Notes: generated by a model not told the origin, from the sequence alone. A stretch of 52,860 bases of DNA from Desulfobacteraceae bacterium (GCA_029939535.1 JAOZST010000003.1:1-52860); one strand, 5' to 3'; shown: positions 5,553-38,567, numbered from the stretch's first letter. Program-made: numbers and translations.

Positions 5553-6147
5553 ATGGGTGAGATGCTTTCCACAAAGCAGGTGGCTGAATTTTTAAATGTA
5601 AATGAAAAAATGGTTTATTCACTCATCAATGAAAAAGGCCTGCCTGCTTCCAAGGTTACCGGCAAGTGGCTCTTTCCCATTGACCTGGTCCGTCAATGGG
5701 TTGAGACGGGAATGGAAAATTATCCTGAAACAGAAAAATTGCCTCCCTATCATGGGCTGGTACTTATTGCCGGATCCAATGATTTGCTGCTGGATAAAGT
5801 TATTGCCCTTTTTAATCTTAAATATGAAGAACATATGGTCATGTTTGGCCTTACCGGCAGCATGGGAGGGCTTAAGGCCCTGCGCAGGAATCTCTGCCAT
5901 ATTGCCGCAAGCCACCTGGCAGCAGACAATCAGGATTATAATTTTCCCTTTATTCAGGATGAAATGATCCAGGTCCCTGCGGTGGGAACGCTTTGATCTG
6001 CTGATTCACAAAGACCGTTTTTTTGACCAGGGTATTCAACTCTTTCTTTCTTTATTAAAAGGCAGGAGCATCCAGAACGCTGCCCGGGAATACGGGGGAT
6101 ATGACCTGTCCATGAGCGGAAAAATGCTCTATCCGGAACAGGCATAA
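5553..6147 (+). pseudogene. Excisionase-type HTH + PBP-like one-component regulator (TunR/ModE-like family) with internal deletion and frame change
   Basis: The N-terminal part (frame of 5553) has STKQVAEFLNVNEKMVYSLINEKGLPASKVTGKWLFP and the first PBP lobe, then stops at 5994-5996. The family C-terminus (ERFDLLIHKDRFFDQG...YGGYDLSMSGKML) follows immediately in the +1 frame, 5986-6147. About 100 aa of the PBP domain that I expect between these pieces is missing. Confidence 0.55.
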
Positions 6148-9159: not shown

Positions 9160-9408
9160 ATGCAGCTTGATCAGAATCCTTTCTTTAGAAAAGTCATAAC
9201 TCCCTGGTATGATTCATCCTTTGCCTGCTGGTGTTTGATCGTCTTTATGCTGGTTGTTTTTGCTTTTTCCCTGGCAGGGATAATTCTGGCCGCAGGAGAG
9301 CCAGCCTTTGGGGATCATATCTGGTTTCCTGAATTTCTGGCATTTTTATCCGGATTCCTTGTGGTTAAGGTTTTTATCCGGCTTCGCCTACGTTCCAAAA
9401 ATTTTTAA
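9160..9408 (+). CDS. Small hypothetical membrane protein (2 predicted TM helices)
   Basis: 82-aa ORF with two long hydrophobic stretches. No recognisable family. Confidence 0.45.
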   Translation: MQLDQNPFFRKVITPWYDSSFACWCLIVFMLVVFAFSLAGIILAAGEPAFGDHIWFPEFLAFLSGFLVVKVFIRLRLRSKNF

Positions 9409-9418
9409 TTTGCGGTCC

Positions 9419-10015
9419 TTACGTCTTTGGCGGGATCAGGACCTCTATCAAATGGTGGAGAATTTTCGCAGTAACCCCCCAGATCACCACATCTTCGTAG
9501 GGATAGGTTAATTTCATTACATTGGGTATACATCCTGAGTAGCCTTTTTCCCTGTGCAGTTTTGTAAGATGGGCAAAGGGAATCTTGAGTACACGTGAAA
9601 TTTCCGAGGTGTCATGGGTAATCATTCCCTTTTGATTCCAGATACCAATAAAGGCCTCAATATCCTTATTATTAATTGTCTGGAAATGTCCAAGGGAACC
9701 CATGACTCCCACATTTTCTTCATGGATTCCCATCTCTTCCTTTAGTTCCCGTAATGCTGCTGCCTGGCTTGTGAAGTCCATTTCCTCCACATGACCACCG
9801 GGAAATGCCATCTGGTTTCGCCAGGGATACCCTTCCACATCAGCTTTCTGTATAAAGACCAGCTCCAGTACCTGGTTAAATACAAATAAGGCCATGACAC
9901 TGGTGTTCTGAAACAGACCCGGGTCTGGCGGGGGAGGGTGAACCGCAGTGTGTAGCGCTGTTCTGATTTTTTCAATACAATTTTTCTGGTCCATATCCTG
10001 AGTTCTAAATTCCAT
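9419..10015 (-). CDS. NUDIX hydrolase (CoA-pyrophosphatase-like)
   Basis: Nudix box core RELKEEMGI preceded by GGHVEE. 198 aa. The start could instead be the internal Met at 9994. Confidence 0.8.
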   Translation of the reverse strand: MEFRTQDMDQKNCIEKIRTALHTAVHPPPPDPGLFQNTSVMALFVFNQVLELVFIQKADVEGYPWRNQMAFPGGHVEEMDFTSQAAALRELKEEMGIHEENVGVMGSLGHFQTINNKDIEAFIGIWNQKGMITHDTSEISRVLKIPFAHLTKLHREKGYSGCIPNVMKLTYPYEDVVIWGVTAKILHHLIEVLIPPKT

Positions 10016-10103
10016 GAATTATTTCCACTCCTTTTAGGCTGACACCTGACCTCTAAGGGCTAACCGCACAGGTCGAATGAGTTCCTGTGAAATTATATGC
10101 TTT

Positions 10104-10892
10104 TTACACATGACCGTAATAATCCCTGTGGGAGACCACTGAATAGGCATAGTCCAAAAGTGTGCCCCAGCTGAAAACAGGCAGATCAATTTCATGCTGG
10201 ATGGCCCTGGCAAAGGGCTGCATTCCCGTACATTCCAGCATGATGGCATTTATTTTAGGATGGGTGTCACAAAATTTTTTACAAGTGCTGATCATATCTT
10301 TTTCAGCTTTATCATAATAGATTTCAGGAATATCCGGTCTTTTTTCAGGGTTCCAGAGGTTGTCAAATTCTGGACAGCCGTATTCATCCAGGGCACCTGC
10401 AATTACAAAATTACTGTTGAGGTCAATGCCCACATTTGTCAAATGGGTGTCAGTTAAGAATCTTTTCTGGGCACAGACAATGCCCACGTCCTTATTCGGA
10501 CCGATCAACTGCTGGATAAAGGGTACCTGGAGCAGGCTGGACATGAACACAGGCACATCAACATATCCTGCCACATCTTTTTGAAAATAGGCAAAATAGC
10601 CGCATTCCGCTGCAATGGCTTTGCATCCCATGCTTTCCAGTTTTTTGGCAGCAGCAAGAATGGGCGCTCTACAGGGGGTTTTGTTCTGTTCCCAGACCAG
10701 GGTGTAATTATCAACCCCTGCTGCTATTTCATACTGGACTGGAAAGGGGAAGCCACTGGCGTTTCTAACATCTCCGGGGAATCCTGGATAGGCATCGTCC
10801 AGCACCATGATGCCAAGGCCCATACCGTAACAGGTGTGGTTTTTACGGGTTTTTGCATAGTTGATATTCAAATCACGGTTCTGGTATATCAT
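10104..10892 (-). CDS. Asp/Glu/hydantoin-racemase-like protein
   Basis: 262 aa with two pseudo-symmetric Cys motifs (AAECGYF and MLECTGM), as in two-base racemases. The start overlaps the stop of the upstream MttB-family gene by 1 nt. Confidence 0.6.
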   Translation of the reverse strand: MIYQNRDLNINYAKTRKNHTCYGMGLGIMVLDDAYPGFPGDVRNASGFPFPVQYEIAAGVDNYTLVWEQNKTPCRAPILAAAKKLESMGCKAIAAECGYFAYFQKDVAGYVDVPVFMSSLLQVPFIQQLIGPNKDVGIVCAQKRFLTDTHLTNVGIDLNSNFVIAGALDEYGCPEFDNLWNPEKRPDIPEIYYDKAEKDMISTCKKFCDTHPKINAIMLECTGMQPFARAIQHEIDLPVFSWGTLLDYAYSVVSHRDYYGHV

Positions 10893-12337
10893 CAGTTTTT
10901 CTCCAAATTATTATTGACAAGATCATTCACAGATAAAAGAATCTGGCTGGAAACCCCTTGATCCATCATGAAATTATCCAGCTCAGTTTTTATATCAGCA
11001 TCCAATTCAGGCTTTGTGTAGGACGTCAGCATCTGTTCCAATGCATTGTCTATGTTTTTGTAATATAGTTCCAGGGCTTTTCCCGGGTCGATATAGCCCC
11101 TGACCCCCACCCTGGGATTCCAGGAATGGGAACGGCATTTTTCCATGGTGTCCTTGGAGGTCAAAAATTGCCCGCCCGGTCCGACTTCCTTGAGTAAATC
11201 CATGTTCAGGGTGGTATCATTGACTTGAAAGTCAGTACTATAAAATTGTATCATATCCAGCATTTCAATATCCATGATGAATTTTTCATAGGATATGGCG
11301 GCAAAACTGTCCAGGATCCCGGCACTGTGTACAATAAGGTTAACATTGTTCCGGCAGGCAGTGAGCATTGAAAACATGCTTTCATAACCGCTCTGGGGGG
11401 ATACACACAGGGAATCAGTGGCAGCACCTCCGCAGCGGCAGGGCAGTTTAAGCATTTTTGCCAGGGCAGCTGTATATTTTCCCTGGAGGGCATAGGCGGG
11501 CGAACCAATGGATATACCACCGGTTTTAAGGTTTGCCATATTGCTTTGAACACCGAAGATTATGGGTACTCCGGGTCTGATCATCTGTGCAATGACTATG
11601 GCGGCCAATGCTTCTGCCGTTGCCAGGGCCATGTTTCCAGCCAGATCAATGGGGCCTGTGGTCCCGGCTGCCGGCGAGGGAGTTATGATCATGGGCTGGT
11701 TGAATTGTGCGCAGACCTTAATGGAGCTCAGGGCCATTTCATCCATGAGCAGAGGACTTATGGTGTTGATCAGGGTTAAAATCCTGGGTGTTTTCTGTAA
11801 CGCATCTTTACCGCCAAACATAATTGCGGCCATATCCATGATCTGTTGTATCTGGAGATGGTTTCCTGGAACCCCCATGATACATTTGTCCGATGTCAGC
11901 AATGCAGAATAAACCATGATCAAATGGCTGAGTTCAGCCGGAACATCATTGGGCTGGGCAAGTATGCCCCCATTGATTGGAAAATGCTCACATTGGTGGA
12001 CCAGTTTTGCAAATCGGATATAGTCCTTGAGCAGTGCATTCCGTGTGCTTCCTTTTAATTCGTAGATGGTCGGGCAGCCATAGCCCGGAACAAAATTTGT
12101 CTGGCTTTCTCCGATTATTGAGTTGTGCAGGGAATTTCTTCCATGGAGGGTAAAGGATTCAGGGGCTTTGCCGATCCAGGATTCAATCTGGTCCCGGGTA
12201 AAAAAAGCAATTTCCCCATCCACCCTGATATTGTTTTCTTTGACAATATCCAGTATCTCAGGGTGTTTGAGTTTGATCCCCACCTCTTCCAGGATATGGA
12301 TTCCATGGGTATAGATTTTCTGTACTTTATGGTTCAT
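10892..12337 (-). CDS. MttB-superfamily (trimethylamine methyltransferase family) protein, non-pyrrolysine type
   Basis: 481-aa uninterrupted ORF. Overall sequence pattern (ILEEVGI..., SPLLMDEMALSS..., TGPIDLAGNMALATAEALAAIVIAQ..., GYESMFSMLTA..., EVGPGGQFL) fits COG5598/MttB as I recall it. No in-frame TAG. Confidence 0.8.
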   Translation of the reverse strand: MNHKVQKIYTHGIHILEEVGIKLKHPEILDIVKENNIRVDGEIAFFTRDQIESWIGKAPESFTLHGRNSLHNSIIGESQTNFVPGYGCPTIYELKGSTRNALLKDYIRFAKLVHQCEHFPINGGILAQPNDVPAELSHLIMVYSALLTSDKCIMGVPGNHLQIQQIMDMAAIMFGGKDALQKTPRILTLINTISPLLMDEMALSSIKVCAQFNQPMIITPSPAAGTTGPIDLAGNMALATAEALAAIVIAQMIRPGVPIIFGVQSNMANLKTGGISIGSPAYALQGKYTAALAKMLKLPCRCGGAATDSLCVSPQSGYESMFSMLTACRNNVNLIVHSAGILDSFAAISYEKFIMDIEMLDMIQFYSTDFQVNDTTLNMDLLKEVGPGGQFLTSKDTMEKCRSHSWNPRVGVRGYIDPGKALELYYKNIDNALEQMLTSYTKPELDADIKTELDNFMMDQGVSSQILLSVNDLVNNNLEKN

Positions 12338-15300
12338 TCTACTTCCTTGTTTAGGTTTAACAGGTTAAAATCGCCGAGAATGGCATAAAGGCATGGTACT
12401 ACCAGGAGTACCAGCAGGGTGGACATGAGCAGTCCGAACACAATGGAGCAGGCCAGGGGAATTAAAATCTGAGCCTGCATGGATTTTTCCATCAAAAGGG
12501 GAAAAAGTCCTGCAATGGTTGTTACCGAAGTCAGAAGAACCGCTCGGAACCTCTCTCTTGAAGCCAGTTTTCCTGCCTGGGCCACGTCCTCACCCTTTGC
12601 CGTGTGCAGTTTGACAAAGCTGACTAGGAGAATGGAGTCATTCACCACAATACCTGCCAGGGATACAAATCCCAGCATACTGGGCATGGAAAGGTCAACC
12701 CCCATGAGCAAATGCCCCCAGATAACGCCTATAAGGGCAAAGGGAATGGTTACCATGATTACCAGGGGTTCCTGAAAGGATCTGAACTGGAAGCTCAAAA
12801 GGCAGAATACACCAAAAATACCTATGCCAAGGGCTTTTAACATACCGCCCATGGATGTTTTCATCTCCTTGGCCTGGCCTTCCAGATCAATGGAAATATT
12901 GGGGAATTCTTTTTTTAATTTTGGCATGAACCTGGCTTTTGTGTCTTTAATGATATCTGCAGTATTGGCAACCCTGGTATCCACATCCCCTGTAACGGTG
13001 ATGGTCCGCTGGCCATCCACCCTTCGGATTCCTGTATATCCCCTGGTGTGGGTAATGGATGCCACTGTATCCAAGGGGATTTTATCTCCATTGCCATCCA
13101 TGAGGTGGAAATTTTCAAGATCTGCAATACTGCGCCTGTCAGAAGCAGCCATCCTGAGGTTAACCTCATAGGACTGGTCCCTGACAATGATTTCACTGGC
13201 AGTGATTCCGTAGAAAGCCGCTCTCAGCTGTTTTGAAATAATTCTGGCATCAAATCCCCTGGCCTTTGCTCCTTTTTTAAGCTTGACCTGGATTTCCGGC
13301 TTGCCCGGCCGCAGATCATCATAAAGATCTGCCACACCCTTATAGTTGTAAAGCCAGTTGATAAGCTTTGTGGAGGCTGATTTTAATTCATCCAAATTTT
13401 GCCCCTTAAGACGGATTTCAATGGGAAGCCCGCCCGGGCCCAGGGTGGGTTCTTTATAGGCAATGGCAATGGCATCGGGGATATCCCCTGCCAGGGTTCT
13501 CCATTTATTGATTATATCATCCATGGACCCGGATCTGTTTTCAGCGCTTAAAAGGTCCAGGGAAACCGTTGCAACATGGGCACCCTTTTCTCCTGCATCC
13601 ACATTGGTGTTGAACAGTACGCTTATATGTTTTACCAGGTCTGCTTTGTCAGGTTGTAAGGGGGATAAGGCTGCATCCATTTCCTGGGCGGCTTTTACAA
13701 ATTTGTCCACATAAAATTCAGTTCTTTCCAAAGGAGTTCCCTGGGGAAACAGTATCCTTGCCTGGAGGACATCTCCTTCAATTTCAGGGAAAGCCCGAAT
13801 TTTTAAATACCCGCCGGCAATCATGGAGATGGAGGCAATAAAGGCAAAAATGATCAGTCCCATAAACAAATATCTGAAATTAACAGCCCTATCCACTATC
13901 CAGCCGAAAAGTTTTTCCCTCAGCCAGTTAAGACCTCTATCAACGTTTTGGCGAAATCTGTTTTTTGCTTTATACGGGTCATGCCCCCCAAGGGCGTGGG
14001 CCAGGTGGTTGGGAAGAATGAAAAAGGCTTCCACAAGGCTTACGGTCAGGGTCAGGATCAGTATCACGGGAATCACATAGAGCACTTTTCCGATGTCCCC
14101 TTTCATGCCCAGGCCCAGTGCCCCGAAAATAAAAAGGGTGGTCAAAAAGGAAGAAAATACGCCTGCAGCCACTTCAGAGATCCCATCCACAACAGCTGTA
14201 AAGGCTTTTTTGCCCCTTTCAAGGTGGGCCGCAACATTTTCGGCAATGACAATGGCATCATCCATGAGCAGGCCAAGTCCTATGAGCAGGCCAACCATGG
14301 ATAACATGTTCAGGGAAAGCCCAATATGCTTCATAAAGAAAAAGGTAAGCAAAAAGGAAACCGGCAGGCCCATGGCCACCCAGAAGGAAAAGGAAAAAGG
14401 GAAAAATAAAAGCATGGCAAAAAAAACGAGGACCAGTCCCTGTATTCCGTTAACTGCCAGCATCCGGAGGCGGTCCCTCACCACCTTGGATACATTCTGG
14501 GTGATGTCAAAGGAGATTCCTGAAGGAGCCCTGGCCTTTTCTTTTTCTATGAACTCTGTCACTGCATCCAGGATTCTCAGGGAATCCTCAGACTTGGTTT
14601 TGGTGATCTGGAGAAGCCCGGCCCGTTTTCCGTTAAACATGATCTGGTCTTCTTTTTCCATGAATCCCTCGGAGATTATGGCAATATCCCCCAGTCTGAT
14701 TTCAGCACCTGTTTCGCCGGATATTACAATGAGATCTTCCAGGGCATCCAGGGTTTTTCTTTCTTCGGAAAACCGGATCAATATGTCTGAATCCCTTGTT
14801 TCCAGACTTCCGGTCGGAAGGTCCAGGCTTTGGGCTGCCACGGCATCATGGATATCTGCTACGGAAAGGCCCAAGCGCATTGTATTGTAAAAGGGGATTT
14901 CAATTAAAAATTCATGGTCGGAAAACCCCAGGATCTCCACCTGGGAAACCATGTCCAAAGCCTTGAGCCGGTCCTTAAGATCTTCGCAATAGAATTTTAA
15001 ATGCACTGGGCTCATGGGTCCGGTAACTGCCACAGACACCACTGGATCAGTTCTGTTAACCCTTTTTACGATGACATTTTCAACTTCTGCAGGGAAATCA
15101 TTGATGGCTTCTACTTCGGTTTTGATGTCATTGAAGAACTCGATGATATTGCCTTGATCCACCATGTCCACGACAATGGAAGCCATGTTCTCCATGGCCG
15201 TACTGCGGACTTCGGCAATATTTGCCACGCTGTCTATGACATCTTCTACCCTCTGGCATAAGGAGGATTCCACATCTGCGGCACTGGCCCCTGGATAGGT

Positions 15301-15459
15301 TATGGTAATTTCAACGGCATTGGTTGAAAAGTCGGGAAAGGTTTCCCGTTTCAGGTCTGCAATGGAAATAAGGCCCAGGACAATGAACAATACCATGAGA
15401 AGATTTGATGCTGTGGGATGGGCACACATGAATGAGATGATTCGTTTAAATAAAGACAT
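12334..15459 (-). CDS. RND efflux transporter permease subunit (AcrB/HAE-type)
   Basis: About 1040 aa with the 12-TM, two-large-loop layout. The N-terminus MSLFKRIISFMCAHPTASNLLMVLFIVLGL...TYPGASAADVE is typical. I prefer Met at 15459 because it abuts the adaptor stop at 15461. The track start at 15504 would overlap the adaptor by 44 nt. Confidence 0.9.
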   Translation of the reverse strand: MSLFKRIISFMCAHPTASNLLMVLFIVLGLISIADLKRETFPDFSTNAVEITITYPGASAADVESSLCQRVEDVIDSVANIAEVRSTAMENMASIVVDMVDQGNIIEFFNDIKTEVEAINDFPAEVENVIVKRVNRTDPVVSVAVTGPMSPVHLKFYCEDLKDRLKALDMVSQVEILGFSDHEFLIEIPFYNTMRLGLSVADIHDAVAAQSLDLPTGSLETRDSDILIRFSEERKTLDALEDLIVISGETGAEIRLGDIAIISEGFMEKEDQIMFNGKRAGLLQITKTKSEDSLRILDAVTEFIEKEKARAPSGISFDITQNVSKVVRDRLRMLAVNGIQGLVLVFFAMLLFFPFSFSFWVAMGLPVSFLLTFFFMKHIGLSLNMLSMVGLLIGLGLLMDDAIVIAENVAAHLERGKKAFTAVVDGISEVAAGVFSSFLTTLFIFGALGLGMKGDIGKVLYVIPVILILTLTVSLVEAFFILPNHLAHALGGHDPYKAKNRFRQNVDRGLNWLREKLFGWIVDRAVNFRYLFMGLIIFAFIASISMIAGGYLKIRAFPEIEGDVLQARILFPQGTPLERTEFYVDKFVKAAQEMDAALSPLQPDKADLVKHISVLFNTNVDAGEKGAHVATVSLDLLSAENRSGSMDDIINKWRTLAGDIPDAIAIAYKEPTLGPGGLPIEIRLKGQNLDELKSASTKLINWLYNYKGVADLYDDLRPGKPEIQVKLKKGAKARGFDARIISKQLRAAFYGITASEIIVRDQSYEVNLRMAASDRRSIADLENFHLMDGNGDKIPLDTVASITHTRGYTGIRRVDGQRTITVTGDVDTRVANTADIIKDTKARFMPKLKKEFPNISIDLEGQAKEMKTSMGGMLKALGIGIFGVFCLLSFQFRSFQEPLVIMVTIPFALIGVIWGHLLMGVDLSMPSMLGFVSLAGIVVNDSILLVSFVKLHTAKGEDVAQAGKLASRERFRAVLLTSVTTIAGLFPLLMEKSMQAQILIPLACSIVFGLLMSTLLVLLVVPCLYAILGDFNLLNLNKEVE

Positions 15460-15460
15460 T

Positions 15461-16819
15461 CTATAAAGCCTCCCCCAGGGCTTTTTGTCTAAGCTGTTCT
15501 GCAATGTCCAGGGCTGGTACAGGTTTTAGCAGCATCCCTTCCACGGCAGGTATAAGATCGCTTAACACCAGTCTCTCTCCCTGCTCAACCCCTGTGGACA
15601 GCACAGCCATATCCTCCATCTGGAATTCAATTTTCACAGGCTTGATTTTCAGCCGGTTTTCAGGTGTGCAGATATAAATTTTTTCTTCATGCAAAGCGCT
15701 TCTTGGGACAACAAACCTGTCTGGAATGAGTTGACCCCTCAGTTCCACCTCCACATACATATTTGTAAGCAGGGGCGGTCGTTTTCCAGGGATTAACTTT
15801 TCATAGGGTTTGTCCACTATAATATAGACTGTAATAGCTCCGGTTTTGAGATCCATGGACTCACTGGTCCGTGAAAACCAGCCCTCCCATTCAACCTGCT
15901 TCATTTCATCCATGGGAAGCCTGACCCTGGCAGTCGTCAGGGCTATGGCCTTTCTAAGAGTTTCCATATCGGGCAGTCCAGGGATTTTGGCGCCATGTTC
16001 CCTGGGCATGAGGTTTAAGAAATTGTTGGGTGATAGCTGTATGGGGATCTCTGCCCTGTCAATGCTTTCAGCTTTAACCAGAACGCTTCCCGCAGATTCA
16101 TACTGGTCAAGTTCGATATTCACGGAAGACAGGCGGCAGTTAAAGGGGGCGTAGATTTCTGTTTTTGCCACATCCAGGCGCTGCTGGCTCACTGTGGACT
16201 CCCCTGATTTTTTCTGGGCCAGAAGGGCTTTTTTCTGGGACGGGATCAGGGCCAGGGTGTTTTGAAGGTTATTCACGGCAGTCTGGCGGGCAAGAAAATT
16301 TCTTTCCTCTTTTTCCAGTATAGAGGCTGAGACAACCCCCTTGTCAAACAATTCCTGCATTCGCTTAAGCTCCTGGGCGGAAATAGCCAAAGCTTTTTTT
16401 TCAATGTCCAGAAGTCTCTGGGTATTTTTCCTGGATTGGTCAAGTTCCTTGAGCCTGGCATCCACATTCAAGAGTTCCGCCATTCCCCGGGTTTCAGCAA
16501 GACCGTAAGCGGTGGTGTCTATTTTTAGCAGAAGTTCGCCCTTTTGGATGAAATACCCTTTTTTCAGGTTTTTATTCATAAAAACGATTTTTCCACTGAC
16601 TTCGGAAATGGCTTCCCAGGTACGATCTGCCTCAACATATCCATAGCTGATGGCTCTGGGTACAACCGGGGTCTTTTCCATAGGAATTATCCGGACAGTC
16701 TGAACCCGTTTTTTGAAATCAAGGCGGGCTGGCGGCTGTTTGTTGCTTTTCATCCACACCAAAAGAGCAATTCCGCAGATAACCGGAATAATGAATAAAA
16801 TTTTTTTTAAGATTTTCAT
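15461..16819 (-). CDS. RND efflux periplasmic adaptor (membrane fusion protein, HlyD family)
   Basis: 452 aa. N-terminal TM anchor, central coiled-coil hairpin, beta-barrel C-terminus. Directly upstream of the RND pump. Confidence 0.85.
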   Translation of the reverse strand: MKILKKILFIIPVICGIALLVWMKSNKQPPARLDFKKRVQTVRIIPMEKTPVVPRAISYGYVEADRTWEAISEVSGKIVFMNKNLKKGYFIQKGELLLKIDTTAYGLAETRGMAELLNVDARLKELDQSRKNTQRLLDIEKKALAISAQELKRMQELFDKGVVSASILEKEERNFLARQTAVNNLQNTLALIPSQKKALLAQKKSGESTVSQQRLDVAKTEIYAPFNCRLSSVNIELDQYESAGSVLVKAESIDRAEIPIQLSPNNFLNLMPREHGAKIPGLPDMETLRKAIALTTARVRLPMDEMKQVEWEGWFSRTSESMDLKTGAITVYIIVDKPYEKLIPGKRPPLLTNMYVEVELRGQLIPDRFVVPRSALHEEKIYICTPENRLKIKPVKIEFQMEDMAVLSTGVEQGERLVLSDLIPAVEGMLLKPVPALDIAEQLRQKALGEAL

Positions 16820-16830
16820 ATGGTCTTTCC

Positions 16831-17808
16831 TTATGCTTGTTTTTCATAAAATTTTTTTTCAATGGTTTTTACTTTTTTTTTCCTGTCTGGAGATAAAAAA
16901 AATTGAAAAAGTGGATCATCCAAGGAAATTTTTTTTTGAAGAATATCCTGTTCAAGGATGGCCAGGACTTCAATAGATACATCGCAGGAAGGGTATCCTT
17001 TATCATCAAGAAGGATTGTGTTGCTAAGCTTGATTTCAACAATGTTATTGATATCTACAAGTTTTAGATTCCCTTCAGGTGTGATGATCAGGTTGCCGAT
17101 GCCTGCAAGGTCGGGAATATATCCGGCATTGGTTATCATATGTCTGATTTTTTTTACGAAGTTTTCAATATTGTTCCTGGCTTTGTCAGCCAATTTTTCA
17201 ACCTGTGGCCGGCACTGGATATCTCTTGGGCTCTTATCCTTATTGGGCATTGATTTGAATAATTCCAGCAAATAATCTTTCCCATACAATCTCCAGGGAT
17301 CAAGTATCTGGCCTTCAACATATTCCTGGAGGCCGCACAGGACGATCTGGCTTGTGCCCGTACCAGTATAATCCACCATGAATTCCTGGGAAGTGGCAAT
17401 AAGCTCAGGCCCCAGAAATTGTAAAAGGAGATTATATTTTTTAACTTCCTGGAAAATGGCCTCTTTATTTTTAAACCTGTTTCGCAATATTCGGAATATT
17501 TTTGTGGGCCTGGCCCTGGGAAACATCCGGATTCCATCTATTATTTCCCCCTGGGTCTCCTTTAAAACATCATTTGCAGCAAGAACTTCAAATATATGGG
17601 ATCTCAGGCCTGATCTATAATATTTCCTGAAGATAATATCTTCTGAGTTTTTGATGAAGTTGAGCTTTTTCACCTCTGTTCCCGATAGATGGGCCTGATC
17701 CCGTATGTCTGCTTGCTTGTCCATTATGGGATTATTGTAGCAAACACCTGGCAGTCGGTAAAGACAGTATTTTTCAGGGTGGTAAAAGGCAAATGAAAAG
17801 GATATCAT
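16831..17808 (-). CDS. Hypothetical protein with protein-kinase-like catalytic signature
   Basis: LQEYVEG (hinge-like), IPDLAGIGNLIITPEGNLKLVDINN (D-x4-N catalytic loop followed by a metal-binding D). The start is uncertain: 17916, 17808 or 17724. The 17916 start would overlap the divergent EamA gene. The stop lies 11 nt before the adaptor gene. Confidence 0.45.
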   Translation of the reverse strand: MISFSFAFYHPEKYCLYRLPGVCYNNPIMDKQADIRDQAHLSGTEVKKLNFIKNSEDIIFRKYYRSGLRSHIFEVLAANDVLKETQGEIIDGIRMFPRARPTKIFRILRNRFKNKEAIFQEVKKYNLLLQFLGPELIATSQEFMVDYTGTGTSQIVLCGLQEYVEGQILDPWRLYGKDYLLELFKSMPNKDKSPRDIQCRPQVEKLADKARNNIENFVKKIRHMITNAGYIPDLAGIGNLIITPEGNLKLVDINNIVEIKLSNTILLDDKGYPSCDVSIEVLAILEQDILQKKISLDDPLFQFFLSPDRKKKVKTIEKKFYEKQA

Positions 17809-17900
17809 GGCCGGGATTGTGCGCTTTGTTTTTTTAATCTGTTTTTTTGTTTCAACCGGCCCGGACCAAGGGGGCCTTATATATAAAGGAATTATTTTCC

Positions 17901-18836
17901 ATGGCAGAAAAGACACAGAACAACCATAACAACTCAGTCAGCCATGTCATGGGCCTGAAAGAGTGGATATTGATTTTCTTATTGTCCGTGATCTGGGGGG
18001 CTTCTTTTTTCTTTGTGGAAGTGGCTGTGAAAACCATGACCCCCTTTACCATAGTCATGTACAGGGTGGGGTTTGCGGCTGTGATTCTTCTGGGGGTTGT
18101 CAGATTCACCGGCCGCCGGCTGCCTTCATCTTTAAAGGTCTGGACTGGCTTATTGGGCCTGGGGGCCTTGAACAATGTAATCCCCTTTTCTTTGATCACC
18201 TGGGGCCAGACTTTAATTGATTCCAGCCTGGCATCTATTTTAAATGCCTTTGCTCCGGTGTTCAGCGTAATCCTGGCCCATTTTCTGACAAAGGAGGAGC
18301 CCCTGACTCCCAACCGTGTCACAGGGGTGGTATTTGGCTGGCTGGGGGTGGCTGTTTTAATCGGGGTGGATTCCCTGAAGGGGGCAGGCCTCCAGGTGGC
18401 AGGCCAGGCTGCTGTGCTGGGAGCTTCCTTCCTCTATGCCTGTGCTGCTATTTTTGCCAGGAGGTTTAAGCATCTGGACCCGGTGGTGGTGGCAGCAGGA
18501 ATGCTTACCGGGTCCACTTTGATGATGATTCCCGTTGCCCTGGTGCTTGAGCATCCCTGGACCCTTGAACCCACCCTCCTGACCTGGGGGGCTATCCTTG
18601 GATTATCTGCCATTTCCACTGCCCTTGCCTATATTATTTATTTTTATGTTCTGGCCAGGGCAGGGGCCACCAATATTCTGCTGGTAACTTTTTTGATTCC
18701 AATCTCTGCTATTTTCCTGGGGGTTGTGGTTCTGGGCGAATCCCCAGGATGGAATGCCTTTGCCGGCATGATCATGATTTTTATCGGTCTTGCCGCCATT
18801 GACGGCCGAATCATAAAAACATTTAAAAAATCTTAA
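17901..18836 (+). CDS. EamA/DMT family transporter
   Basis: About 310 aa with 10 hydrophobic helices in two repeats. Start preferred at MAEKTQNN (17901). Confidence 0.8.
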   Translation: MAEKTQNNHNNSVSHVMGLKEWILIFLLSVIWGASFFFVEVAVKTMTPFTIVMYRVGFAAVILLGVVRFTGRRLPSSLKVWTGLLGLGALNNVIPFSLITWGQTLIDSSLASILNAFAPVFSVILAHFLTKEEPLTPNRVTGVVFGWLGVAVLIGVDSLKGAGLQVAGQAAVLGASFLYACAAIFARRFKHLDPVVVAAGMLTGSTLMMIPVALVLEHPWTLEPTLLTWGAILGLSAISTALAYIIYFYVLARAGATNILLVTFLIPISAIFLGVVVLGESPGWNAFAGMIMIFIGLAAIDGRIIKTFKKS

Positions 18837-18993: not shown

Positions 18994-20916
18994 ATGGGAA
19001 CCAAAAAGACACGTAAATTTAAAACCGAAGTGCAGCAGCTGCTGCACCTGATTATTCATTCCTTGTATTCCAACAAGGAAATTTTTTTGCGGGAGCTGAT
19101 ATCCAATGCCTCGGATGCCATTGACAAGGCAAGATTCAAGGAACAGATCGAGCCTGCACTCTTCAGCGATGATACAGATTACCATATCCGTATTGCCACA
19201 GATCCGGAAGCAAAAACCATTACCATTTCCGACAACGGCATCGGCATGACCTTTGACGAGGTAAATGACAACATCGGTACCATTGCCCAGTCAGGAACAG
19301 CAGCCTTTATGGAGGCCCTGGAAAAATCCAAAAACGAGACTGCATTGTCACCTGAACTCATTGGCCAGTTTGGTGTGGGCTTTTATTCTGCCTTTATTGT
19401 GGCTGATAAGGTCTGCCTGGATACCAGGGCAGCTGGAGAAGAAAAGGGCGTCCGCTGGGAATCCGACGGCAAGGGTTCCTATACGGTCCAGGAAATTGAA
19501 AAAGAGAACCGTGGAACAAGCATTGTCCTTTATTTAAAAGATCCGGAAGAGGGGGACCAGAATTTTACAGAAGACTATACCATCCAGAACATTGTTAAAA
19601 AGCATTCCGACTTTGTGACCTATCCTGTGATCATGAATCTTGAAAAAAGTGAGCCTATTCCGGAAAACGAGATTATCAAGGATTCAGATGGGAAACCCAT
19701 TGGAGATACCTTTAAAAAGGTAAGAAAAGACGAGACCCTCAACTCCATGAAAGCAATCTGGGCCAAAGACAAGGAAGATGTTACCCAGGAAGAGCATGAA
19801 GAGTTCTATAAACATATCAGCCATAACTGGGACAAGCCCTTTCAGACTATCCATAAGAAATTTGAAGGGGTGACTGAATATGATGTTTTGATGTACCTTC
19901 CTTCCACTGCTCCCATGGATCTTTTCCGGCCGGAAAGAAAACACGGGATGCAGCTGTATTGCAAACGGGTTTTTATCATGGATGACTGCAAGGAGCTTTT
20001 GCCGGAATACCTGGGCTTTGTCCAGGGCGTTGTTGATGCACCGGACCTGAATCTCAATGTGAGCCGTGAAATTCTCCAGGAAGACCGGCTGGTGAGGAAT
20101 ATCAAGCGAAATCTGGTCAAACAGATTTTTTCTGTCCTGGAGGGACTGGAAAAAGAAAAATATGAAGAGTTCTACAAGGAGTTTGGTCAGGCCCTGAAAG
20201 CCGGTATTCCCACAGATTTTCAGAACAAGGAAAGGCTGGCTTCCCTGCTCCGGTACAAGACCACCAAGTCCGGCGACAACTATGTGTCCCTGGATGAATA
20301 CATTGAGAACATGAAGGAAGACCAGAAAGAGATTTATTATCTTACCGGAGAAAGTCTCACTTCCCTTATGAATTCTCCCTTGCTGGAATCATTAAAAGCC
20401 CGGGATTACGAAGTCCTGCTCATGGTTGATCCCATTGATGAGTGGGTAACCCAGTCCCTTATGGATTACAAGGAAAAGAAGTTAAAAAGTGCAGAAAAGG
20501 GTGACCTGGACCTGGACAAGGTGGATGATGAAAAGAAAAATGAATATTCCGCTCTTCTCTCCTTTCTTAAGGGTAAGCTGGAAGCAAAGGTAAAGGATGT
20601 TGTTGTTTCTGACCGTCTCAAGGATTCTGTTTCCTGCCTGTCCGGAGATGATTATGGCATGAGCGCCTACATGGAAAAGATCATGAAAGCCTCGGGCCAG
20701 AAAACACCTGACCAGAAAAGGGTGATGGAGGTTAATGTCAACCATCCGGTCATGGAAAAAATCAAAGGACTTTTTGAGGGCGACACAACCAATCCGGTTC
20801 TTACGGATTATTCTGATCTGCTTTTTGATATTGCAGTGATCAGCGAAGGTGGCAAACTGGATAATCCAGCCAGGTTTTCATCGCTTCTGGGTGACCTCAT
20901 GGCTAAGGCCATATGA
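18994..20916 (+). CDS. htpG: Molecular chaperone HtpG (Hsp90)
   Basis: 640 aa. N-terminal [34 protein letters not shown] and [11 protein letters not shown] motifs. Confidence 0.95.
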
Positions 20917-22337
20917 TCATCTTTCTTGAAAGTCTCGGGTGTTCCCGCAACCAGGTGGACAGCGAAATCATGCTGGGAAAGCTTGTGGCAGCAGGACACC
21001 AGAGGACAGATGACCCGGGCCTGGCCCAGGTTATTATTGTCAATACCTGTGGATTTATATCAACTGCCTCTGAAGAGGCAGTTGATGTGATCCTGGAAAT
21101 GGTGGAATTTAAGAAATCCAAGTCCTGCCAAAAGCTCATAGCTACCGGGTGCCTGGCCCAGCGCTACAAGGATGATCCCAATCTTCTTGCAAGCCTGCCA
21201 GAGGTGGATGCCTTTCTGGGCACTGCTGCCTGTGAGCAGATTGTGGATGTGGTGGAAGGCAGGCAGACCACCCCCCTGACTCTATTTCCCGACCCCAGCC
21301 AGCGCAGGTTCCAGGATCCGCGCACTGACCGGGAGCTTATCTCCCGGGGATATGCCTTTATCAAGGTCTCTGAAGGATGCAACCGTCACTGCACATATTG
21401 CATTATACCGGAACTGCGGGGCATCCAGCGGTCCAGGCCGGTTGAAGATATCTGCGCCGAAGCCTCTTCCCTGGTGGCAAAGGGGGTGAAGGAAATCATC
21501 CTCACAGCAGAAAACACCACGGATTACGGACAGGATCTGGTGGGTAAAACTGATTTAGCCAGTTGTGGATCAGGGCAGATTAAATCTGACCAAATTAAAC
21601 CAGACCAAATTGAGTCTAACGGGATTGGATTTGACGGGGTACTCTCTTCCCTGTCAGACACCCTTGCAGACCAGGATGAAAATGTCTGGATCAGGTTTTT
21701 ATACACCCATCCCAAAACCCTGGGGTCTGAGGTTATTAAAATAGTCCAAAGTAATCGCAATCTTTGTTCCTATTATGATGTTCCCATTCAGCATGCCGCC
21801 TCCACCATGCTCAAACGCATGGGCCGGCCCTATTCCCGAAAAGACCTTGTTGAACTATTTGAACTGATTCGAAAACTGGATCCCAAGGCCAGCCTCCGTA
21901 CCACCCTGATTGTGGGGTTTCCAGGTGAAACAGAAGAGGAGTTTCAGACCCTTTTGGATTTTATTAAGGAGGTCCGGTTTGATCATCTGGGGGTATTTAT
22001 TTATTCGGATTCCGAGGACCTAAAATCCCACGGCTTAAAAAATCATGTGCCAAAAGAGCTGGCTGAACAGCGCCACGATATTCTCATGTCAGCCCAGGCA
22101 AAAATTTCCCAGGAACTCAATGAAAGGCATGTGGGCGAAATCTATCCAGTGCTGGTGGAAGAAAGTCCTGAACCGGGTGTATATATCGGCAGGACAATGT
22201 TCCAGGCGCCCGAGGTGGATGGAATGACATTTATTTATTCCCAGGGCCTTGAAATCGGGACCCTTGAAATCGGGACCATGGTTCGTGTAAGAATAACAGA
22301 TGCATATGAATATGATATAGCCGGAGAAGTGGCATGA
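20913..22337 (+). CDS. rimO: Ribosomal protein S12 methylthiotransferase RimO (radical SAM MTTase with TRAM domain)
   Basis: MTTase N-domain Cys residues (LGCSRN, NTCGF, TGCLAQR), radical [12 protein letters not shown]-terminal TRAM. ATGA overlap with htpG. Confidence 0.85.
21576..21620 (+). repeat. Three imperfect in-frame 15-bp tandem repeats inside rimO
   Basis: cagattaaatctgac / caaattaaaccagac / caaattgagtctaac, encoding [15 protein letters not shown]. Confidence 0.8.
22247..22276 (+). repeat. Perfect in-frame 15-bp tandem duplication inside the rimO TRAM region
   Basis: ccttgaaatcgggac occurs twice back to back, encoding [10 protein letters not shown]. Confidence 0.9.
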
Positions 22338-23320
22338 GTTCTGACATAAAATCACAAATTCTGGCTCTGGTCTCCCAGGATCTTGAACAGGTGGAAAAAG
22401 CCCTGGCTGAGAATCTGGATCCCAATTTGGAACTGGTCCGGGAGATCGCCTCCCACCTTTTGTTCAGCGGGGGAAAAAGACTGCGGCCTCTGCTCATGAT
22501 CCACAGCGCCAGGATGTGCGGGTATAGTTCCGGGTTTGAAATTTTGTTTTCCATAATTTTTGAATACCTCCATGCTGCAACCCTTCTCCATGACGATGTT
22601 GTGGATGAAGCTGATATGCGCCGGGGAAAAAAAACTGCCCATACCAAGTGGTCAGCTCCCAAGGTGGTGCTTACCGGGGATTTTCTTCTGGCCCGGGCCC
22701 TGGCCATTGCTGCCCAAACCCTGGAACCCAGAGTGATTTCTGTGATTGCAAATATTACCCAGGCAATGTCCCAGGGGGAAATTGACCAATTGGATAAAAA
22801 AGGCAGAAAAGACCTGTCTGAAGCAGAGTATCTCGAGATCATTGAACGGAAAACCGCTGTCCTGATCCAGGGCGCATGCCAGAGCGGGGCCATAATTGCC
22901 AAAGTGTCCCCTGAAAAGGAAAAGACCCTGGCATCCTATGGGTACCATCTGGGCATGGCTTTCCAGATGGCAGACGATCTTCTGGATTATACGGCAACGG
23001 CAGAAGAACTGGGGAAAAATCCAGGAGCAGATTATCGGGAAGGAAAACTGACCCTGCCCTTGATCTACAGTCTATCCAAAGCCAGCAGCAAAGACCGTGA
23101 AAGGATGCTTCAGGTAATTTCAGAACCTGTTTTTGACAAGGATCAGTTTGAAGAACTTAAAGAAAAACTTACAGACCTAGGGGGTATCTCCTATACCCTG
23201 GAACGGGCAGAATACCATGTGGAAAAGGCAAAGAGTCTGCTAGGGGTATTTGTTGATGGTTCGGATTCAAAATCATTGCTGCATCTTATTGCAGACTATT
23301 CAATCCAAAGAAAGGTATGA
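22334..23320 (+). CDS. Polyprenyl diphosphate synthase (IspB-like, long-chain trans-prenyltransferase)
   Basis: Both DDxxD motifs are present (LLHDDVVDEADMRRG and MADDLLD). 328 aa. ATGA overlap with rimO. Confidence 0.85.
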   Translation: MSSDIKSQILALVSQDLEQVEKALAENLDPNLELVREIASHLLFSGGKRLRPLLMIHSARMCGYSSGFEILFSIIFEYLHAATLLHDDVVDEADMRRGKKTAHTKWSAPKVVLTGDFLLARALAIAAQTLEPRVISVIANITQAMSQGEIDQLDKKGRKDLSEAEYLEIIERKTAVLIQGACQSGAIIAKVSPEKEKTLASYGYHLGMAFQMADDLLDYTATAEELGKNPGADYREGKLTLPLIYSLSKASSKDRERMLQVISEPVFDKDQFEELKEKLTDLGGISYTLERAEYHVEKAKSLLGVFVDGSDSKSLLHLIADYSIQRKV

Positions 23321-24567
23321 TCATGGGAATAAAAAGACAGATAGGTATCATCACCATTTTTCTAGGGCTGCTGCTTATGATGGAGACTTGCTTTGCCGCA
23401 GGGCCTGAAATGCTGACAGGTGTGACCACTGGCCGACAGAAAATTATTGATCAGGATATTCCCAGGGCAAAGCAGAAGGCTGTGGACCAGGCGCTGGAAA
23501 CAGCTGTTCAGAATGCTTTTGCAACCCTGATTTCCCGCCAGGTATTTGCAGCCAACCTGGAATTTTTATATGAAAAATTATTGCCCATGACTTCGGATTA
23601 TGTGACCACATACAGGGTTCTGGGGGGTATGAAGTATAAGGGAAATTACCTGGTGGGGGTTGAATCTAAGATCAACCTGGAGCTTCTTGAAAAACATTTG
23701 ACCGATGCCAGGATACTCAATGCAGGTACGGATAAACCTGTGATTCTTTTTTTGATTGCTGAACAAATGCCCGGAGACATCCTTCCCAGATATTGGTGGG
23801 GAAATAATCCAGAACCTTATGCTTCTATTTCAGAAACCATTATCCTGGAACAAATGTCCCAAAATCGGTTCCAATTTATTGGTATCGGTCCTGATCGGCC
23901 AGTCCCTTCTTTTTATAATATCAATTTTTCTTCCATCTATGATGCCAATGCTGCAATGGAGCTGGGCAGAGCCCTTAAGGCAGATATGGTGGTTCTGGGA
24001 AAAGCAAATGCAGCGGAATCCATTAATCGCATGGGGGATGAAAAAATTTTTGATGCTGTGATCGAGCTTAAGGGATATGATCTGGGATCTGGTAAAGAAG
24101 TGGTCCTCTCCTTGAGCAAGGGGAGCGCAAAAACCGATATGAATCAGGAAGGAGCAGCCGGTGCCATTACCAAAGCCGCAGATCTGGCAGCCCGGGATCT
24201 CATTCTGAAAATAGATGCTTTCTGGACCCAGAACCTTAGACGGGAAAGCCTGTTTGATGTTGCCATTGAAGGAGATAAATTTCTATCCAGGTTTATTGCC
24301 CTGAAAAAAAGGTTTAAGGAGATCAGGGATATTGAAAATATTCAGCCCAAGGAAATAGGCTCCTCCAGCGCAGTCATGGAGATTGTGTTTAAGGGAAACC
24401 CTGAACAATTTGCCCATGCCCTGATGCTCAAGACCTTTGACGGATTTGGTATCGAAATTGCAGATGTGACGGACCAGATGATTAAAATCCATTTTATTGA
24501 AAAAAGGGATAACATGCTCCAGGCGGATGACATTGGGGCTGGAGAGGGGAAAAAAATAAAAGAGTAA
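23317..24567 (+). CDS. Hypothetical secreted protein/lipoprotein
   Basis: 416-aa ORF with an N-terminal signal peptide (IGIITIFLGLLLMMETCFAAGP). The start overlaps the upstream stop. No confident family assignment. Confidence 0.6.
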   Translation: MIMGIKRQIGIITIFLGLLLMMETCFAAGPEMLTGVTTGRQKIIDQDIPRAKQKAVDQALETAVQNAFATLISRQVFAANLEFLYEKLLPMTSDYVTTYRVLGGMKYKGNYLVGVESKINLELLEKHLTDARILNAGTDKPVILFLIAEQMPGDILPRYWWGNNPEPYASISETIILEQMSQNRFQFIGIGPDRPVPSFYNINFSSIYDANAAMELGRALKADMVVLGKANAAESINRMGDEKIFDAVIELKGYDLGSGKEVVLSLSKGSAKTDMNQEGAAGAITKAADLAARDLILKIDAFWTQNLRRESLFDVAIEGDKFLSRFIALKKRFKEIRDIENIQPKEIGSSSAVMEIVFKGNPEQFAHALMLKTFDGFGIEIADVTDQMIKIHFIEKRDNMLQADDIGAGEGKKIKE

Positions 24568-24623: not shown

Positions 24624-24699
24624 AGGCGCGTAACTCAGTTGGTAGAGTGCTACCTCGACACGGTAGAAGTCAGCAGTTCAAGTCTGCTCGTGCCTACCA
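24624..24699 (+). tRNA. tRNA, anticodon GAC by position (Val), encoded CCA; atypical C33 and A1-U72
   Basis: Manual cloverleaf. Acceptor AGGCGCG/CGTGCCT (one G-U pair). D arm ACTC-AGTTGGTA-GAGT. Anticodon arm CTACC-TCGACAC-GGTAG. Variable loop AAGTC. T arm AGCAG-TTCAAGT-CTGCT. Discriminator A plus CCA. 76 nt. Confidence 0.8.
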
Positions 24700-31249: not shown

Positions 31250-32290
31250 TTAGGCTGGATCTTTTTTTGTCGTGTCTGGCGTATACGTATCGGCCATATA
31301 ATGAAAATATTTTTGTACAAATTTTCCTGAAATTGTATCGGCCAGGGAAAAGGTGAAATCAGTATCTGGCAAAAATTGTCCTGAAAAGGCCAGGAATATA
31401 GTTTGGGAAAGTTCAACAAGCATATTCTGGATTTCATGTTTGTCTTTTGAAAAACCAGGTACTCCATAAATCCTGCACCTGGCAGGTCTTGTCTCGTATA
31501 TCCTGCAGCAGGAATTATAATTAAGCGGGCAAAGAGTGTTTTCTTTCTTATATGTCTTGACAGCCCTTTCTATCAGAATATCCCTTTGAACAGATGAAAA
31601 ATGTTTGTTCATTTTTGAATGGAGATAAATTACTTCTATGAGTTGAAGATCAAAAGGTTCATGGCAACATTTATCCTCACCCCTGCCGCATTGAATATTT
31701 TCTCCTTTTGTATGATTTTGAATTTCCTCATCAATGTTTTTTATCAAAGATTCATAATCAGAAAAAAAATCGTTTAGATCCACCCTGTTTTTAATCTCCA
31801 GGGAGGGTTCCCTGATCTTAAGGATTCCTGATTTTTTACCATATTTTTTTAATAATTTCCACTGACCGTAATTGGAAGGGTTTGCATTGGATGACTTTAA
31901 CCTTTTTGAAGCTGATTTAAGGGAAAGGCCTCTGCGAATCATATAGGAAGTGACAAAGGTTCCTGTCCTTCCCACCCCGTGCCTACAGTGGACCAGAACT
32001 TTTTTGCCAAGGTAAATGGCTTCATCAAGCCAGGCCAGGGCTTCTTCCATGGCTTCCATTTTAGGAATATCCTCGTCCCAGATGGGAAGATAACAAACTT
32101 CAAAACCTGCGGACTCTTCAATATCATGGAGATCGCTGAATTCAGCGCAAAGGTTAACAATAGCATCAACTCCCTGGTTTTTTATGGACTCCAGTTCAGC
32201 AAATGACATAGGGGCATATCCAACAGCAATACTATCTGTGATCCATGTTATGGGGAATGTGGACATTTGTTCTTTTCCCAATTTTATCAC
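31250..32290 (-). CDS. Dual-specificity (Cys-based) phosphatase domain fused to a YkgJ/UPF0153-type Cys-cluster domain
   Basis: HCxxGxxR(S/T) loop VHCRHGVGRTGT at about residue 100. The C-terminal half has CGRGEDKCCHEPF ... CPLNYNSCCRIYETRPARCRIYG, the YkgJ pattern. 4-nt overlap with the upstream gene. Confidence 0.7.
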   Translation of the reverse strand: MIKLGKEQMSTFPITWITDSIAVGYAPMSFAELESIKNQGVDAIVNLCAEFSDLHDIEESAGFEVCYLPIWDEDIPKMEAMEEALAWLDEAIYLGKKVLVHCRHGVGRTGTFVTSYMIRRGLSLKSASKRLKSSNANPSNYGQWKLLKKYGKKSGILKIREPSLEIKNRVDLNDFFSDYESLIKNIDEEIQNHTKGENIQCGRGEDKCCHEPFDLQLIEVIYLHSKMNKHFSSVQRDILIERAVKTYKKENTLCPLNYNSCCRIYETRPARCRIYGVPGFSKDKHEIQNMLVELSQTIFLAFSGQFLPDTDFTFSLADTISGKFVQKYFHYMADTYTPDTTKKDPA

Positions 32291-38144: not shown

Positions 38145-38148
38145 AAAA

Positions 38149-38532: not shown

Positions 38533-38567
38533 TTTTTTTGTGTGTTATTTTAAAAAAGGAGAATCAA

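Follow-up and report, generated by a model that had tools for sequence, protein, structure and literature searches.

Results and Discussion

Layout of the five-gene locus

We analyzed a 52,860-nucleotide (nt) stretch of DNA from Desulfobacteraceae bacterium (GCA_029939535.1, JAOZST010000003.1:1-52860), referred to here as the window, in which ORF calling gave five co-directional open reading frames (ORFs) on the minus strand between positions 10104 and 17916. In the order of transcription, these encode a protein with a kinase-like fold (g1), the periplasmic adaptor and the inner-membrane pump of a resistance-nodulation-division (RND) system, a methyltransferase of the MttB superfamily (MttB), and a racemase-like protein (rac). 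An earlier note on this DNA had read the five genes as one transcription and translation unit, possibly coupling the modification of a quaternary amine or amino acid derivative to its export. The comparisons reported below suggest instead that the arrangement is probably a young mosaic with MttB-rac as its conserved part. The features of the locus, listed along the minus strand, are as follows.

17901-18836, plus strand: transporter of the EamA family (drug/metabolite transporters, DMT), divergent from g1 (EamA, E value 1e-42).
17734-17762, minus strand: candidate sigma-70-like promoter (TTTACC-17-TACAAT with TG), from a consensus scan only, with 9/12 matches; weak evidence.
16831-17724, minus strand: g1, 297 amino acids, protein-kinase-like fold by AlphaFold2 and Foldseek, apparently a resident gene outside the conserved module.
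16820-16845, minus strand: putative deletion scar, comprising the 3' end of g1 and the 11-nt gap to the adaptor gene, where the window is without about 115 nt of the spacer seen in loci L001 and L170.
15461-16819, minus strand: periplasmic adaptor (membrane fusion protein) of an RND system (TIGR01730, 98.9 bits against a cutoff of 94.9; HlyD_3).
12334-15459, minus strand: RND inner-membrane permease, 1041 amino acids from the ATG at 15459 (ACR_tran, PF00873, 2.1e-155).
10892-12337, minus strand: non-pyrrolysine MttB-superfamily methyltransferase, MtgB-like (MTTB, PF06253, 1.5e-111, residues 4-458).
10104-10892, minus strand: rac, 262 amino acids, PRK07475 family, predicted Asp/Glu-racemase fold (NF005679, 276.6 bits against a cutoff of 231).
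9419-10015, minus strand: NUDIX hydrolase, the likely ancestral downstream neighbor of g1, now downstream of the inserted block (NUDIX, 4.4e-13).

The domain and profile matches agree with the five gene identities given in the earlier note, g1 being kinase-like at the level of the fold only. Its four junctions were likewise correct when read base by base. The g1 stop codon TAA (16833-16831) is separated from the adaptor ATG at 16819 by an 11-nt gap (16820-16830) that contains GGAAAG, and a gap of 1 nt lies between the adaptor TAG (15463-15461) and the pump ATG at 15459. The pump TGA (12336-12334) overlaps the MttB ATG (12337-12335) in the sequence ATGA, and the MttB TGA (10894-10892) and the rac ATG (10892-10890) share base 10892 in the sequence TGATG. 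The TTG at 15504 that the ORF finder gave as the start of the pump is an overextension; in L001, the gene call for the homologue begins at the corresponding ATG and gives 1041 amino acids. The proposed upper limit of the unit, 17916, had to be moved, because it belongs only to a maximal GTG-started ORF that runs into the divergent EamA gene (ATG at 17901, plus strand). The start of g1 was placed at the ATG at 17724, from which 30 homologues align.

Junctions of this kind, in the style of translational coupling, are routine between unrelated genes in this genome. At 18994-24567 in the window, genes for HtpG, MiaB, a polyprenyl synthetase, and a 416-amino-acid protein without a Pfam match are joined by three successive 4-nt overlaps, and thus the tightness of a junction alone says little about shared function. 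The promoter candidate at 17734-17762 was the sole one upstream of the whole gene string in the window. When promoter and terminator consensus sequences were scanned for across 9300-18100, the site counts were not above those of shuffled sequence, so that internal signals were neither supported nor refuted. In the window, a single tRNA gene (24624-24696) was the only Rfam match, with neither a riboswitch nor any other RNA element in the cluster or its vicinity.

The five-gene order is confined to one site in one lineage

Related loci, designated by L numbers, were compared with the window in neighborhood searches anchored on MttB, rac, and g1. The rac set was drawn from one genome per species, with the best 80 of 376 relatives inspected, and the g1 set came from metagenome contigs, with the best 80 of 411 relatives inspected; the MttB identities of orthologue loci were taken from tblastn. 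Beyond the window, the order g1-adaptor-pump-MttB-rac, or the four-gene part of it, was found only in the identical contig L174 (100% MttB identity), L170 (87 to 88%), and L001/L002/L090 (83%). All of these loci share the NUDIX-NrdD-NrdG flank with the window and thus represent one chromosomal site in one lineage. By the source names of its closest homologues, the window belongs in or near Desulfobacula. Among the g1 loci, the adaptor-pump-MttB-rac block was present in 1 of 80, namely L090, which is the L001 contig. None of the 80 rac loci carried the adaptor, pump, or g1 nearby, apart from one partial distant RND match 9 kb off in L040, and an RND gene was beside none of the seven closest nonsyntenic MttB orthologues (61 to 82% identity). 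The earlier note had proposed a neighborhood search for MttB-rac pairs beside RND genes, and among the loci inspected this arrangement appeared only in the window's own lineage. The five-gene order therefore comes close to having no conservation at all, being restricted to one narrow lineage and one site.

The MttB-rac pair behaved differently. An MttB-family gene was located within 600 nt of rac and on the same strand in 50 of the 80 rac loci, including those of Eubacterium and Acetobacterium, which is a lower bound because several of the loci without MttB have short flanks; within 10 kb, the count was 59 of 80. At the nonsyntenic MttB orthologue loci, rac was kept directly downstream of MttB but in changing company: beside a major facilitator superfamily (MFS) transporter and a Pterin_bind fragment in L172 (MttB, 82%; rac, 94%), beside Pterin_bind, an MscS channel, and EamA in L171 (74%), beside EamA in L173 (70%), beside GntR, a TRAP transporter, and EamA in L007 (69%), beside a PemK toxin gene in L005 (64%), and beside a corrinoid protein, Pterin_bind, an FGGY kinase, and an electron transfer flavoprotein (ETF) in L009 (61%). 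These comparisons indicate that MttB-rac is a genuine, widely conserved two-gene unit, widespread among anaerobes with quaternary amine demethylation.

An EamA-like ORF was found no more than 10 kb from rac in 29 of the 80 genome loci, and EamA adjoins MttB-rac in L007, L171, and L173. Because EamA recurs near rac, the divergent EamA protein of the window is a likelier cognate transporter than the adaptor and pump.

Two further loci showed variations on these neighborhoods. In L003 (11446-11889), an MttB orthologue (70%) is followed by a degraded rac remnant consisting of two short ORFs (34% over about 125 amino acids), and the MttB-rac pair can thus decay. The only other close g1-RND neighborhood in the 80 loci was that of L145 (2793-8508), where genes for a distantly related adaptor (26%) and RND pump (38%) lie about 370 nt downstream of a g1 homologue (47%); the RND gene of L146 (22%) is about 5 kb away from g1.

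History of the locus

The simplest reading of the related loci is that g1 and NUDIX were once adjacent, with htpG divergent from g1. The NUDIX gene directly follows g1 in L092, L094, and L150 (g1 71 to 74% identical), and htpG is directly divergent from g1, with no EamA gene between them, in eight related loci (L091-L093, L113, L126, L127, L136, and L137). The g1 protein of the window is 73% identical to that of L092, and the flanking NUDIX is 74% identical to its L092 counterpart, a matching divergence that is consistent with vertical descent of g1. Thus, g1 appears to predate the insertion and to be resident at the site.

Traces of the former junction were seen on both sides of the block. 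In L001 and L170, g1 and the adaptor gene are separated by a spacer of 125 to 132 nt with TTGACA-N17-TATAGT, and the element GGTTTGACA, which forms this promoter-like sequence there, is common to these two spacers and to the ancestral g1-NUDIX spacer of L092. On the other side, the ancestral NUDIX start ATGGACCAGAAA is kept as codon 8 of the window NUDIX ORF. The presence of GGTTTGACA in the sister spacers, together with the retention of ATGGACCAGAAA, suggests that the block was inserted between the promoter-like element and the NUDIX start. In the window, a specific deletion of about 115 nt would account for both the 11-nt gap and the aberrant C terminus of g1, which ends in ...FYEKQA, compared with ...FYxNL in the family. 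The g1-adaptor junction, the most operon-like in appearance of the locus, would then owe its form to a recent deletion, and separate transcription of g1 and the block is probable in the sister lineages.

The MttB-family methyltransferase

The MttB gene is an uninterrupted ORF of 481 amino acids with no in-frame UAG and hence no pyrrolysine, and it scored 247 bits on TIGR02369 (cutoff, 525). Its closest solved relative was the glycine betaine methyltransferase MtgB of Desulfitobacterium hafniense (9yce/2qne; E value 4e-109), with residues 4-461 aligned to MtgB residues 13-471 at about 41% identity over 408 aligned residues. MtgB residues Y97, R312, H348, and F356 are conserved in the window MttB as Y86, R301, H337, and F345. 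In MtgB, mutagenesis and a ligand-bound crystal structure showed that this tetrad holds glycine betaine, with Y97/F356 providing cation-pi contacts and R312/H348 binding the carboxylate; conservation of the aromatic pair does not extend to MtcB, MtpB, MthB, or MtyB, and the tetrad is a minimum requirement for glycine betaine and not proof of specificity (PMC13080624). On the basis of these residues, the window MttB is predicted to methylate a corrinoid protein from a small carboxylate quaternary amine. The suggestion of a quaternary amine substrate in the earlier note is therefore supported with regard to MttB itself by the retained tetrad, but not with regard to a modification coupled to export.

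The window MttB resembles the MtgB system of D. hafniense (DSY3156; PDB 2qne/9yce) in being a full-length MttB-superfamily TIM barrel that lacks pyrrolysine and keeps the tetrad. It differs in its surroundings: no gene for a B12-binding corrinoid protein and no Pterin_bind gene, the methylcorrinoid:tetrahydrofolate methyltransferase of such systems, was found anywhere in the window, whereas orthologue loci L009 and L171 carry such genes. In addition, the window MttB gene is translationally coupled to racemase-like and RND pump genes, neither of which was found in the MtgB literature searched. The MttB genes that adjoin rac elsewhere were only 23 to 69% identical to that of the window and sorted into at least three classes of binding pocket by the residues at the tetrad positions of MtgB: YRH[F/Y/W], [V/I]RHF, and [A/S/G]YH[C/M].

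The racemase-like partner

The NCBIfam model that rac matched, PRK07475, is named "hypothetical protein." With PF01177 (Asp_Glu_race), rac scored 29.2 bits, under the gathering score of 31, and the Eubacterium callanderi homologue scored 35.8. Searches of PDB sequences with the single sequence and with a profile gave no match to any solved structure, and only fold comparison placed the protein. The rac model was moderately confident (predicted local distance difference test [pLDDT], 70), with residues 20-52 poorly modeled. Members of the racemase superfamily predominated among its top Foldseek matches in the PDB, which included the Asp racemase 1jfl (3.4e-6), an arylmalonate decarboxylase, and racemases for Glu and allantoin, with E values of 3e-6 to 1e-3 and template modeling (TM) scores of 0.4 to 0.56. 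Residues C97 (AAECGYF, after strand 92-94) and C221 (MLECTGM, after strand 214-219) were invariant in 23 sequences. In its predicted fold, rac resembles the Asp/Glu/hydantoin racemase superfamily (Pyrococcus 1jfl, arylmalonate decarboxylase, Glu and allantoin racemases, and maleate isomerase), and its two invariant cysteines, which follow beta strands in the two half-domains, are candidates for the catalytic thiols of such enzymes. It differs from this superfamily in having no sequence-level match to a solved structure, a Pfam score below gathering, and some 50 N-terminal residues that are highly conserved yet poorly modeled.

The protein is 77 to 96% identical across Desulfobacterota and Firmicutes (Eubacterium, Acetobacterium, and Maledivibacter), and each of the best 120 clusters is 76% or more identical to the window protein, with Maledivibacter, Eubacterium, Acetobacterium, Geosporobacter, and many Desulfobacterales among them. 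In E. callanderi, rac is the first gene of a rac-MttB-MttB operon that has a divergent gene for a BCCT betaine/carnitine/choline transporter and flanking sigma-54 activators, a typical quaternary amine catabolic locus. Supplements to the Eubacterium limosum proteome list only alanine, glutamate, and lactate racemases and do not tie the rac homologue to a growth substrate. We found no description in the literature of an MttB-racemase pairing or of an RND-MttB linkage, which is absence of evidence only.

Contexts of rac without MttB were also observed. In L037 (6375-13918), L056, and L031 (8449-10789), rac comes last in a conserved series of a divergent EamA gene, an Fe-alcohol dehydrogenase, and an enolase-superfamily (MR_MLE) gene, and alanine-dehydrogenase-like and pyridoxal phosphate (PLP)-enzyme genes lie downstream. 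Distant homologues (33 to 38%) occur on replicons of aerobic Alphaproteobacteria of the Roseobacter group, namely, a Pseudosulfitobacter plasmid (L175) and a Ruegeria plasmid (L176). One of the Roseobacter contexts comprises an FAD oxidoreductase, ETF, an amino acid ABC transporter, and purU, and the other comprises a TRAP transporter, an FAD oxidoreductase, a D-cysteine-desulfhydrase-family enzyme, and RidA. The range of contexts suggests a general role for rac in the catabolism of N-methyl or amino acid derivatives.

The RND adaptor and pump

The adaptor weakly matched AcrA and MexA in the PDB by sequence. The pump is a full-length permease that covers positions 1-1020 of the 1,021 in the ACR_tran profile and matches MdtB, MexK, CmeB, and AcrB from end to end. 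Orthology to a named multidrug pump was not supported: all NCBIfam equivalog models scored far under their cutoffs, the best being RND_permease_2 with 441.8 bits against 1250. As in AcrAB-, MexAB-, and MdtABC-type systems, the adaptor gene lies directly upstream of the gene for a full-length RND permease with 12 transmembrane segments. The locus differs from these systems in that the pump is orthologous to none of their named pumps and its gene is followed, with the ATGA overlap, by that of a cytoplasmic methyltransferase. It also differs in having no gene for an outer-membrane factor: no OEP/TolC-type protein was found among the ORFs of the window, and the earlier note was right on this point. 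The adaptor and pump probably form an ordinary multidrug-type RND system that would use an outer-membrane factor encoded elsewhere.

The kinase-fold protein g1

No Pfam or NCBIfam family matched g1, and no kinase model (Pkinase, APH, Choline_kinase, and similar) matched it at an E value of 0.01 or lower. Nothing usable came from PDB sequences with either the single sequence or a profile, and only fold comparison placed the protein. The AlphaFold2 model had a pLDDT of 77.9, and Foldseek gave 301 matches in the PDB at E values of 1e-3 or lower (best, 4.4e-6). All 50 of the matches listed were kinases or pseudokinases, with TM scores of only 0.40 to 0.47. The description of g1 as kinase-like is therefore supported by the model at fold level only. 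The segments PDLAGxGN (D205 and N211) and LVDINN (D224) were invariant in 31 homologues, their assignment as kinase motifs having been made by eye. Across Desulfobacula-like contigs, g1 is a conserved divergent neighbor of htpG, with 53 to 74% identity, and belongs to no curated family.

Proposed assembly of the locus and alternative explanations

Taken as a whole, the comparisons favor, with reasonable though far from complete confidence, the reading that the five genes are a young, lineage-specific mosaic in a Desulfobacula-like bacterium and that the link between the pump and the enzymes is a by-product of insertion and not an evolved pathway. The mosaic would have three layers. In the first, g1 and NUDIX would have been adjacent residents, with g1 divergent from htpG. 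In the second, the adaptor-pump-MttB-rac block would have entered the site with the promoter-like element 3' of g1 on one side and the start of NUDIX on the other, an insertion whose direction we infer, and the EamA gene would have been gained between htpG and g1 in the same lineage. In the third, which concerns only the window, the deletion of about 115 nt would have taken out the promoter-like site that both sister contigs still have between g1 and the adaptor gene and would have left all five genes, and possibly NUDIX, apparently read from the g1 promoter. Co-transcription of the adaptor and pump with MttB-rac would then be a by-product of block assembly or insertion.

In the same reading, the function of the locus would lie with the enzymes. 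MttB would bind a small, glycine-betaine-like carboxylate betaine through cation-pi contacts of Y86/F345 and through R301/H337 at the carboxylate, and it would transfer a single methyl group to Co(I) in a corrinoid protein, presumably encoded elsewhere, from which the methyl group would go to tetrahydrofolate. Rac could be a racemase or epimerase that needs no cofactor and works with two thiols (C97/C221), its target being the alpha-carbon of either a chiral betaine or an N-methyl-amino-acid product. Of all the steps, this one is the least certain. EamA would probably carry the substrate or product across the membrane.

Several observations weigh against this reading. The composition of the block gives no independent sign of foreign origin, with GC and GC3 (G+C content overall and at third codon positions) of 0.456 to 0.471 in the block versus 0.449 to 0.456 in NUDIX and NrdD. 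The tetrad does not guarantee glycine betaine as the substrate, and glycine betaine, being achiral, conflicts with a racemase role for rac and leaves that protein without an obvious function. All four contigs of the lineage preserve the ATGA overlap between the pump and MttB genes, which makes co-transcription and translational coupling of the two almost certain there. In addition, an MFS, MscS, TRAP, BCCT, or EamA gene often adjoins MttB-rac, and the RND pair could fill this transporter slot. Finally, the linkage of pump and enzymes may already have existed in an unsampled donor from which the block came in one piece.

The strongest alternative takes the RND pair as a functional part of the system, exporting a demethylated product (e.g., the dimethylglycine-type compounds that sulfate reducers excrete) or expelling amphiphilic quaternary ammonium compounds that MttB also detoxifies. 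Demethylation products must leave the cell, and RND pumps handle quaternary ammonium surfactants. The conserved ATGA coupling and the frequency with which a transporter gene of some class neighbors MttB-rac elsewhere both speak for it. Against it stand the absence of nearby RND genes at the 80 rac loci inspected and the seven nonsyntenic MttB orthologue loci and the resemblance of the pump to generic HAE1-type multidrug pumps, which take amphiphiles from the periplasm or outer leaflet and not small cytoplasmic zwitterions. The MtgB-type pocket of MttB points to a small carboxylate betaine, and EamA, as a recurrent neighbor of rac, is already at hand as a candidate transporter. We therefore regard this alternative as unlikely, and recruitment of the RND pair to MttB-rac in any functional sense as hardly more plausible, if not slightly less so. 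A stricter version, in which the pair is a dedicated exporter of the demethylated product or of an amphiphilic quaternary amine and rac is obligatory for the use of a chiral betaine, seems to us improbable. If true, it would be the first RND-coupled corrinoid-dependent demethylation system. The coupled modification and export proposed in the earlier note has no support beyond co-transcription in one narrow lineage.

In the next alternative, g1 would be a kinase acting on small molecules and would activate the substrate of MttB ahead of its demethylation. There is a precedent in E. limosum, in which the choline kinase MthK supplies phosphocholine to MthB and an EamA transporter is present in the cluster, a published system with the kinase encoded beside an MttB-family gene (PMC12155760). 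The kinase-like fold of g1, with a conserved catalytic-loop Asp/Asn and a DFG-like Asp (motifs assigned by eye), and its position between EamA and the block in the window would fit such a role. However, MttB or rac accompanies g1 only in L090, in the window's own lineage, and g1 is conserved beside htpG and NUDIX in relatives without MttB-rac, with the divergence from L092 that vertical descent would give. Moreover, the window MttB keeps both the carboxylate-binding and the aromatic residues of MtgB, a pair that is not conserved in MthB (PMC13080624). With MttB near g1 in only 1 of 80 loci, an MthK-like role for g1 was rejected on neighborhood evidence and appears very improbable. The MthB/MthK/MthC/MthA cluster resembles the locus in combining an MttB-family gene with an accessory enzyme and an EamA transporter, and it is a precedent for the dependence of an MttB-family enzyme on a substrate-processing partner (PMC12155760). 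It differs in that the conserved partner in the window module has a racemase fold and not a kinase fold and that the window pocket is of the MtgB type. The last alternative, that the five-gene order is ancestral, an old operon lost repeatedly elsewhere, draws on its conservation in three sub-lineages with MttB divergence of up to 17% but was rejected on parsimony as scarcely credible, since it requires many independent precise losses (at least eight htpG-g1 loci with 53 to 74% g1 identity and three g1-NUDIX loci), the promoter-like spacer of g1-NUDIX loci also lies upstream of the adaptor in L001 and L170, and MttB-rac pairs as close as 82%/94% occur in unrelated contexts, e.g., L172.

If the mosaic reading is correct, the locus illustrates how an insertion and a small deletion can yield a textbook-looking five-gene operon from unrelated parts. 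The better lead is the widespread and uncharacterized MttB-rac module, with or without EamA, the case for the pump being weak. MttB-family enzymes decide the fate of dietary and marine quaternary amines, which either give trimethylamine or are harmlessly demethylated. To our knowledge, MthK is the only accessory enzyme known so far for these enzymes. With a second accessory enzyme, this one stereochemical, the range of substrates predicted for the large and mostly unassigned MttB family would become wider, and rac would offer a simple genomic marker for one subset of it.

Other observations in the window

Three regions outside the locus were also noted. At 5553-5996 lies a probable truncated remnant, an HTH_17/PBP_like ORF of 147 amino acids, whose counterpart in the syntenic L001 has 301 and which L170 lacks. 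On the minus strand at 31250-34926, a dual-specificity-phosphatase-domain protein (346 amino acids) has a 4-nt overlap with a PPDK_N/PEP-utilizer protein (879 amino acids). At 35352-40259, a protein of 930 amino acids combines a molybdopterin oxidoreductase with a Nitrate_red_del (TorD-like chaperone) domain at its N terminus, and this fusion is followed by an ORF of 127 amino acids and a 573-amino-acid TauE/SafE-family membrane protein with a long N-terminal extension.

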